From Octopus vulgaris (Eukaryota), in assembly GCA_951406725.2 (NCBI GenBank), contig OX597818.1, positions 69,192,001 through 69,256,000 on the forward strand: a stretch of 64,000 bases of DNA, given 5' to 3'. Made by a program: the position numbers and the translations under genes. Positions 27,681 through 28,617 of the stretch are shown piece by piece. Positions within the stretch are counted from its first letter, which is position 1. Every line of letters begins with the position of its first letter. The notes under the pieces were generated by a model that saw only the letters and a program-made list of their open reading frames with translations, did no database searches and had not been told where the DNA came from.

Positions 27681-28617
27681 ATCTTGGGGTTAGTAGCCCA
27701 CACTCTTAACCACTACGCCACGGGTATATGGCATTGTGGTTAAGAGCACAGGCTACTAGCCCCAAGATTCTGAGTTCGATTCCAGGCAGTGACCTAAATA
27801 ATAGTAATAATAAAAATAATAATGGGTAGCAAGCCGACCTTCCCTGAATGATATCTCAGCTTCAATTCCCACCATCCATACAGTGTAAAGAGAGGGATTG
27901 CTCAGTGCCTAAAACGTTGAGCAAAGAATATAAGGAGCAATCGTGATACACACCACAAAGAAATGATGAAGCTCAGTAACAATCTATTAAGCAACAACTA
28001 CCCCAAAAGTATATACTATCCACTGCAATTATGAAGAAGAGAGAGGATGAGGCCAACCTACCCTATGTGAAAGGCCTCTCCAAAAAGATACAAAAGATAT
28101 GCGGTCCATATGACATCAGGACAGTATTCAAAAGTAATACAACACTTCAAAATATTTCCTTTGAGTAAAACCACCAATAGAAGAGAATATGACTAAGAAC
28201 TGCATGTACTCCATCCCATGCAGCTGTGGTAGGTTATACAAAGGTGAAACATGCCACCCCCACAAAATAAGGGTAGAGGAACATCACAAAGCTGTGACAC
28301 GAGGAGATATTGATAAATCGGGTATTGTTGATCATGTATGGAAAAATGGAGACCACCTCCCCCTGTGGGATGAAGTTAAAATAATAGACAGAGAACACCA
28401 CTGGAAAATGAGAAAACTAAAAGCATCAGCACATATGCTAGGACACAACAACCTCCTTAGCAGACCGAGTGCAGATATGGGCAGCATATGGGAACTGGTA
28501 TTAAGGAAAGAAAGGAAATAGCTGAAATGTTGTGTTAACAACAAACAAGATGAGGACAAATATCTGTCAAATGTAAATAATGTACATAATTCCTCATCTT
28601 TTAAATATAAAACTGTA
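27681..28617 (+). mobile_element. Palindromic tRNA-head element, copy 2, fused to a Penelope ORF fragment
   Basis: Partial minus head 27681-27720, plus head 27722-27794, (AAT)n, PLE ORF remnant, then the 3' half of the hammerhead and the family tail at 28520-28617. Confidence 0.85.
27829..28521 (+). pseudogene. PLE RT-thumb/linker plus GIY-YIG endonuclease, disrupted
   Basis: KPTFPE*YLSFNSHHPYSVKRGIAQCL..LPYVKGLSKKIQKIC..MYSIPCSCGRLYKGETCHPHKIRVEEH..SGIVDHVWKNGDH..WDEVKIIDRE..RKLK; stops and frameshifts. Confidence 0.88.

Follow-up and report, generated by a model that had tools for sequence, protein, structure and literature searches.

An octopus locus points to a PLE clade that most likely carries a tRNA-like cassette in its pLTR and sheds SINE-like copies

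Results

Anatomy of a decayed tRNA-hammerhead/PLE locus

The window analysed here is a 64-kb stretch of Octopus vulgaris DNA with the composition of AT-rich animal DNA (GC 0.36, CpG observed/expected 0.43). For positions 27681-28617 the initial annotation had described an inverted partial tRNA-like head, a full head and an (AAT)n run that lead into a remnant of a PLE thumb and GIY-YIG endonuclease (EN), followed by half a hammerhead and a tail, and each of these parts was found in its place (Table 1). The hairpin that involves the inverted partial head has an energy of -56.1 kcal/mol (z -9.8). The PLE remnant (27831-28518) spans 688 bp in three frames, contains stops and two frameshifts, and is aligned by tblastn of P0002 with an E-value of 9e-75. 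Within it lies an ORF of 110 codons (28189-28521), which was rejected as a separate gene, as it begins at an internal Met of the frameshifted remnant. The TAG that closes this ORF (28519-28521) may be a product of the junction; P0006, which is 86% identical to the window ORF, extends four residues further, and two contig pieces cease to match at 28518 with 17 and 10 letters left. From 28520 to 28617 the locus matches the hammerhead 3' half and tail of other copies at 94% (E 2e-38) and 86% (E 3e-31), and loose ends in all four sequencing runs reveal that other copies have the hammerhead 5' half ahead of position 28520. The locus had been put forward as a candidate autonomous partner of the tRNA-headed elements; because it has no RT and only half a ribozyme, it is unable to move itself, and we regard it as a dead, rearranged copy. 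No target-site duplication is evident around it. Downstream, at 28955-29610 (-), a decayed LINE reverse-transcriptase remnant is recognizable by eye, and Pfam was blank on three of its frames.

Table 1. Positions of the parts of the locus and of the ORF-less copies in the 64-kb window
Feature	Position	Strand	Remarks
Inverted partial tRNA-like head	27681-27720	-	Self-match; 92.5% to 34033-34072; fold-back at the head's 5' end
tRNA-like head	27722-27795	+	82-84% to 13962-14129 and 34022-34126, E 7e-33 to 6e-27
A box of the 27722-27795 head	27729-27739	+	One conserved base changed
B box of the 27722-27795 head	27774-27782	+	
(AAT)n microsatellite	27796-27823	+	Within the putative pLTR; its end is the first junction
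Decayed PLE RT thumb and linker	27831-28150	+	Two in-frame stops, two frameshifts; tblastn with P0002, P0005 and P0039, 48-81% identity per piece
Decayed PLE GIY-YIG endonuclease	28150-28518	+	CxC...H...H pattern retained; 67-86% to P0002, P0039, P0006 and P0008
3' half of minimal hammerhead	28520-28536	+	Stem II 3' strand, GAAA, cleavage triplet, stem I 3' strand; 5' half absent; second junction
Tail	28537-28617	+	Optional extension past 28584/28590
ORF-less copy	13962-14346	+	Head-to-head palindrome, (AAT)n, middle, whole hammerhead (core 14217), tail
ORF-less copy	33851-34273	.	Inverted hammerhead-tail, 21 nt of the spacer between ORF and head, head, (AAT)n, tail

The ORF resembles PLEs of the Penelope/Poseidon type

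By its sequence, the ORF is that of a PLE of the Penelope/Poseidon type, with which it agrees on most of the testable points. An RT followed by a C-terminal GIY-YIG domain in a single ORF is seen in its relatives, as P0039 (806 aa) and P0002 carry RVT_1 ahead of a C-terminus that is 67-68% identical to the locus, and the locus itself keeps the thumb, linker and EN. The CCHH residues of the EN (C19, C21, H40 and H57) are invariant in six of six sequences, and the linker of P0039, P0002 and P0005, examined by eye, has no cysteine cluster and no Neptune-type Zn-finger. A minimal type I hammerhead is represented by two descriptor matches in the window and by matches behind the ORF in 4 of 17 records considered below, and the optional 30-40-bp tail and inverted 5'-truncated copy are represented by the tail ends, the inverted tail-head joints, the segment 33851-34008, and P0008, P0046, P0071 and P0078. 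Among the Atlas clusters that match the same part of P0039, 12-18% of members are GIY-YIG. Pfam did not name the 110-codon ORF or the EN region, a PDB sequence search with P0039 returned weak RT matches only, and of the pattern matches that an alignment of the ORF gave, 222 in metagenome contigs and 39 in viral contigs, none was confirmed.

The nearest named proteins are Octopus models (P0005, 80%; P0008, 85%; P0096, 86%). A tree of 17 EN-region rows, which contains no reference PLE proteins and groups only the near kin of the window ORF, placed the latter with P0006 and P0008 (97/98), apart from two sister families that are ~60-70% identical. P0096, a model from Octopus sinensis, starts with ~36 residues read in sense from the middle-hammerhead-tail part and continues as a receptor-like host protein; this fusion could reflect exonisation or a first exon driven by the pLTR. 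The window also holds a second, unrelated decayed PLE endonuclease remnant at 41760-42560 (+), with a weak tblastn match at 42136-42423, a cysteine-rich linker that appears Neptune-like by eye, and an inverted repeat around it (41599-41760 / 42886-43050).

Motifs of the head and the hammerhead

The head was scanned with the consensus A- and B-box motifs. The combined motif matches four times in the window, twice in heads of this family, against a shuffle mean of 0.12; the boxes are 34 nt apart in two of the three forward heads, and the strict motif misses the mutated A box of the 27722-27795 head. Further A/B-box heads, which belong to other repeat families, lie at 55161 (-) and 31661 (-). ARAGORN reported 0 tRNAs in the window and did not tell random back-translations of 15 records apart from shuffles, and Rfam called neither a tRNA nor a hammerhead in the head and hammerhead parts at the gathering or the E-value level. 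Because ARAGORN and Rfam call no tRNA, the label 'tRNA head' rests on the A/B-box motifs. The best blastn matches of the head among phage sequences were tRNA-Gln genes, but with an E-value of 2. The minimal type I hammerhead descriptor matches twice in the 64 kb (14217 + and 33972 -) and in 0 of 30 shuffled windows. Stem III of the family's hammerhead is a 6-nt palindrome, a feature that the available text of PMC6765202 reports for PLE hammerheads. The 3' end of the unit thus described is a PLE hammerhead plus tail and its microsatellite is internal, so that it does not have the LINE-derived poly(A) or simple-repeat end of a tRNA-SINE.

ORF-less copies and the two ends of the tail

The ORF-less copies in the window are likely solo pLTRs. 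In the 33851-34273 copy the inverted hammerhead-tail occupies 33851-34008 and has an intact core at 33972 (-), and the copy sits between 13-bp direct repeats (33839-33851 and 34275-34287); the 34022 copy shows no run of four T through the tail. The window copies are single or inverted, and no tandem array of hammerhead-bearing units was found at 25000-36000. Other dispersed repeats, some of them partly tandem, occur at 26755-26910, 26917-27150, 27275-27461, 50077-50795, 53772-54172 and 58673-58892, and palindromic or inverted-repeat stretches unrelated to this family at 36794-37170, 43783-43823 and 46794-46893.

In contigs of the sequencing runs the preferred 5' end of copies is near the head; many copies start there, with joints that have 1-8 letters between, and the consensus of the loose ends fades after 14 letters. 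Joints of 27720 to 28550-28574, with 1-8 letters between, connect an inverted tail to the head. Downstream, copies in three DNA runs end either at 28584/28590 or at 28618, 28-34 nt apart, and the far end lies 87 nt past the predicted cut, as compared to 85-92 nt in Poseidon_Ac (PMC11167929). These ends fit the optional 30-40-bp tail that is a signature of PLEs.

Several protein records place the tail next to the ORF. P0008, an O. vulgaris model, opens with 15 residues of inverted tail, of which 13 match (E 3e-4), and then continues in this ORF, possibly with an intron between the two, and P0046, P0071 and P0078 contain an inverted tail or hammerhead-tail beside a truncated ORF, with the family's hammerhead/tail as the best match in the window. 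Over 18 nt, the inverted tail of P0046 fits residues 9-14 at the N-terminus of P0039 free of conflicts (0 of 300 shuffles), and therefore the tail is the start of the ORF in the P0039/P0046 family. A pLTR-ORF-pLTR tandem in which the tail runs into the ORF is bridged for that family only. The tail at 28537-28617 is likewise likely to be the start of a next ORF. A search with the tail's sense frame gave 3 matches of 590 candidates, none with an RT; the P0039 N-terminus by itself does not find the tail, and the tail pattern had 0 matches in metagenome contigs.

The head and hammerhead lie behind the ORF in other copies

An antisense translation of the ORF end was compared with 1.84 billion proteins and retrieved 44 junk ORFs from other copies, whose N-termini provide a readout of the DNA 3' of the ORF. 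Three of them, P0053, P0055 and P0066, which were chosen by eye and also stood out when 37 of the 44 records were scanned, bear on the window's own family. Their first 9 residues each rank first at 34005-34031 (-) among 127,948 places, with bit scores of 19.9, 17.8 and 21.9 (runners-up 12.8, 11.3 and 11.7) and a sum of 59.5 bits vs 21.2. This segment comprises the first bases of the head and the 21 nt that precede it in the 33851-34273 copy; it is situated 45-48 nt beyond the position of 28520. The three records run from the 5' end of the head into the ORF end after 45-48 nt. In a test of 13 records, their base conflicts in 96 number 10-13 against the window/P0006 ORF and 14-20 against the sister families, which places them closer to the former. 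In addition, 27720 and 28508 are joined on opposite strands in three of the four runs (X2, X5 and X12; one contig each, shorter side 18, 37 and 27), which on our reading would be an ORF end followed by a head. Taken together, the three records and this joint indicate that in this family ~40 nt separate the ORF end from the head that follows it. The C-terminal extension of P0006 showed no significant agreement with the spacer (5 of 100 at best, and 18 of 300 for the last codons).

The sister families present the same order. At least 50 residues beyond the ORF end are available in 17 of the 44 antisense records (P0052, P0080, P0085, P0092 and others), which are copies of few families and not independent of each other. 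The head follows the ORF in sense, at p<=0.05, in 7 of these 17 (wrong-sense control 1; Fisher 1e-7), and the hammerhead in 4 (wrong-sense control 0; Fisher 3e-5); in P0052, P0080, P0085 and P0092 the best head match falls between ORF and hammerhead in every case, the head match alone having a p of 0.07 in P0052 and 0.10 in P0092. Between P0052 and the P0003 family there are 0 base conflicts, and the RT-bearing P0039 of 806 aa belongs to the cluster of that family. By eye, a low-complexity run similar to (AAT)n is seen between the head-like part and the hammerhead in P0052, P0085 and P0092, that of P0052 being alanine-rich in its antisense reading. The initial annotation had tied a tRNA-headed hammerhead element to a PLE family, and had named full-length members that never carry the tail or hammerhead as what would speak against it. 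The tie holds up, as elsewhere the head and hammerhead follow the ORF and the tail occurs beside it; what falls away is the head as a foreign cap, since it appears to belong to the PLE's own 3' UTR/pLTR.

Depth of the family and of the locus in sequencing contigs

Contigs from four sequencing runs were aligned to the window at 80% likeness, a setting prone to repeat artefacts. Run X15 was taken to be RNA by guess, and where X5 and X15 left the 5' flank partly uncovered, this did not count as absence. Summed depth, which in these runs does not equal copy number, falls in run X2 from the tail (5.0M) to the head (0.75-1.1M), the ORF end (0.7M) and the thumb (0.16-0.27M), and is ~40 on the 5' flank of the locus. 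This gradient from tail to thumb is that of a high-copy, 5'-truncating family. Over the bin of the (AAT)n-ORF junction the depth is 1,000-2,200, and on account of this low value the chimeric form of the locus was rejected as a multicopy subfamily. No listed contig of the four runs bridges either junction of the locus; its 5' flank is seen in them only as diverged contigs, and 28743-28950 is identical in X2.

Discussion

Interpretation of the locus and its family

We consider it probable that the locus is a decayed, rearranged PLE copy whose tRNA-like head, (AAT)n, minimal hammerhead and tail are its own pLTR, and that the ORF-less copies are solo pLTRs which the enzymes of this element inserted. 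The order that this implies for the family, which is read from translated junk ORFs and single short contigs rather than from full-length DNA copies, would be ORF end, ~40 nt, head, microsatellite, middle, hammerhead and a tail that is the start of the next ORF. How the present arrangement came about is less certain. We lean somewhat towards a copy of the pLTR-ORF-pLTR form that lost two internal stretches, one of ~2 kb following the (AAT)n and one of ~220 nt following the ORF end; a solo pLTR in which the middle was replaced by an ORF of the same family is a serious possibility, if a doubtful one.

The unique junctions of the locus, with a depth of 1,000-2,200 at the first of them and no evident target-site duplication, are what a one-off nested insertion would leave, or a template switch from a SINE to a fragment of an unrelated PLE. 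Other records, in which this one ORF family goes with head, hammerhead and tail, largely refute this reading and make it remote; the template switch between unrelated RNAs that had been suggested is not needed if the head lies within the PLE's own pLTR. An assembly chimera of repeat copies would account for the lack of a listed contig across a junction and for a 5' flank that is unseen at high identity in the four runs. It is nevertheless very improbable: at each junction the sequences brought together are non-homologous, divergence separates the two arms of the head, and private changes are numerous in the ORF, much as an old copy in the genome would show; gaps in contig cover, for their part, are no proof of anything. 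The result for the family is independent of a possible local misassembly, and the link would stand anyway.

The remaining alternative concerns the family as a whole. In a classic SINE birth, the hammerhead and tail would derive from a PLE, a tRNA head would have been fused to them once, and the hybrid would have spread, with heads after ORFs as SINE insertions behind PLE ends. The A and B boxes in the head and the many copies that start there suit this account, and PLEs are described as inserting near their own ends in the available text of PMC6765202. Against it, P0053, P0055 and P0066 share the spacer length of 45-48 nt and the spacer letters of 34005-34025, and sister families that are 60-70% identical carry head-like sequence at the same place; we therefore hold it to be improbable. 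Most likely, the feature belongs to a clade of PLEs that have a tRNA-like cassette within the pLTR and give off SINE-like copies.

A possible route to the copies

In Poseidon_Ac, the start of reverse transcription lies 111-118 nt inside the ORF, and the tail is what separates two such starts (PMC11167929, in the text available). By analogy, reverse transcription in the octopus family would start at two sites in the tail, producing the two tail ends, and would proceed in the direction of the head. Where a cDNA stops at the short palindrome that precedes the head, it could then fold back, as in the head-to-head arrangements at 13962-14122 and at this locus, or gain an inverted tail, and 5' truncation or a short RNA would yield solo pLTRs. 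Such an RNA might come from a Pol III start at the head through the A/B boxes and would run across the start sites of reverse transcription, which would account for the many copies that begin at the head. The portion of PMC11167929 available also states that sequence beyond the tail is required for protein binding in Poseidon_Ac, which needs ~55 nt past the RT start. If the same is true here, solo copies scattered through the genome would leave no further copies, and full-length loci would be their source; on this point a self-propagating non-autonomous family would differ from pLTRs shed by full-length loci.

Comparison with known elements

SINEs are held to pair with LINEs, and to our knowledge the promoters of PLEs are thought to lie in a pLTR without a tRNA part. 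In their available text, PMC11167929, PMC8557442 and PMC4209133 describe Poseidon_Ac and other Penelope/Poseidon PLEs with an RT plus C-terminal GIY-YIG ORF, a type I hammerhead in a pLTR that overlaps the ORF start, an optional tail, an inverted 5'-truncated copy upstream, and solo and opposite-strand hammerheads, all of which recur here; hammerheads in pLTRs with solo and inverted or opposite-strand copies are in print in PMC4209133, and the optional tail and non-autonomous PLEs such as Chlamydomonas MRC1 in PMC8557442. The octopus pLTR differs in that its hammerhead is preceded by a tRNA-like head with A/B boxes and by a microsatellite. The word 'tRNA' occurs 0 times in the accessible part of PMC4209133 and once, in an unrelated context, in that of PMC8557442. 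A Pol III-type promoter followed by a hammerhead is shared with the Schistosoma SINEs Sm-alpha and Sj-alpha (PMC6765202); these have canonical hammerheads, are often tandem and, in the text available, have no PLE partner named, whereas the octopus unit has a minimal hammerhead with palindromic stem III, is dispersed, has PLE-type inverted ends and lies within a PLE. Non-LTR retrozymes and MRC1 are likewise ORF-less units akin to pLTRs, likely moved by PLE proteins (PMC7229834, PMC7761336, PMC8557442, as far as their accessible text goes), and retrozymes have been presented as PLE derivatives (bioRxiv 10.64898/2026.07.22.740005, PMC7229834, PMC7761336). Retrozymes are defined as tandem repeats with a hammerhead per unit, and the main text of the bioRxiv study, as accessible, does not contain 'tRNA'; the octopus copies are instead dispersed and tRNA-headed. 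In the open literature available to us in part, including the octopus repeat papers PMC13282606 with its supplement and PMC8967140, we found no tRNA-like head inside a pLTR; this search extended to neither Repbase, Dfam and SINEBase nor subscription papers.

A link to previously described octopus repeats is conceivable, as the SINEs of Ohshima and Okada (1994) may include this head.

These SINEs are reportedly similar to tRNA-Arg. They are cited in the available part of PMC4758252, which names OR2 as a CORE SINE; the tRNA-like head in an octopus repeat is alike, and the hammerhead/PLE end differs from a LINE-derived tail.

Significance

A tRNA-like A/B-box cassette in the pLTR of an apparently intact PLE clade would let a SINE-like passenger arise directly from an autonomous PLE, and it offers a model for promoter-plus-hammerhead elements such as Sm-alpha. 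The use of solo pLTR RNA as a template is testable with the purified Poseidon protein assay described in the accessible text of PMC11167929. According to the available portion of PMC13282606, SINEs make up 11.6% of the O. vulgaris genome and most recently active SINE families are unclassified; a tRNA-bearing pLTR could reclassify part of this SINE mass. Tentatively, then, a Penelope/Poseidon clade in several hosts may have captured a tRNA gene that now serves its pLTR as an internal Pol III promoter, such that the PLE protein copies, in trans, a short Pol III RNA with head, hammerhead and RT start site. A 'SINE' that ranks among the most abundant in octopus would in that case be PLE-dependent, and the schistosome Sm-alpha may share its origin.
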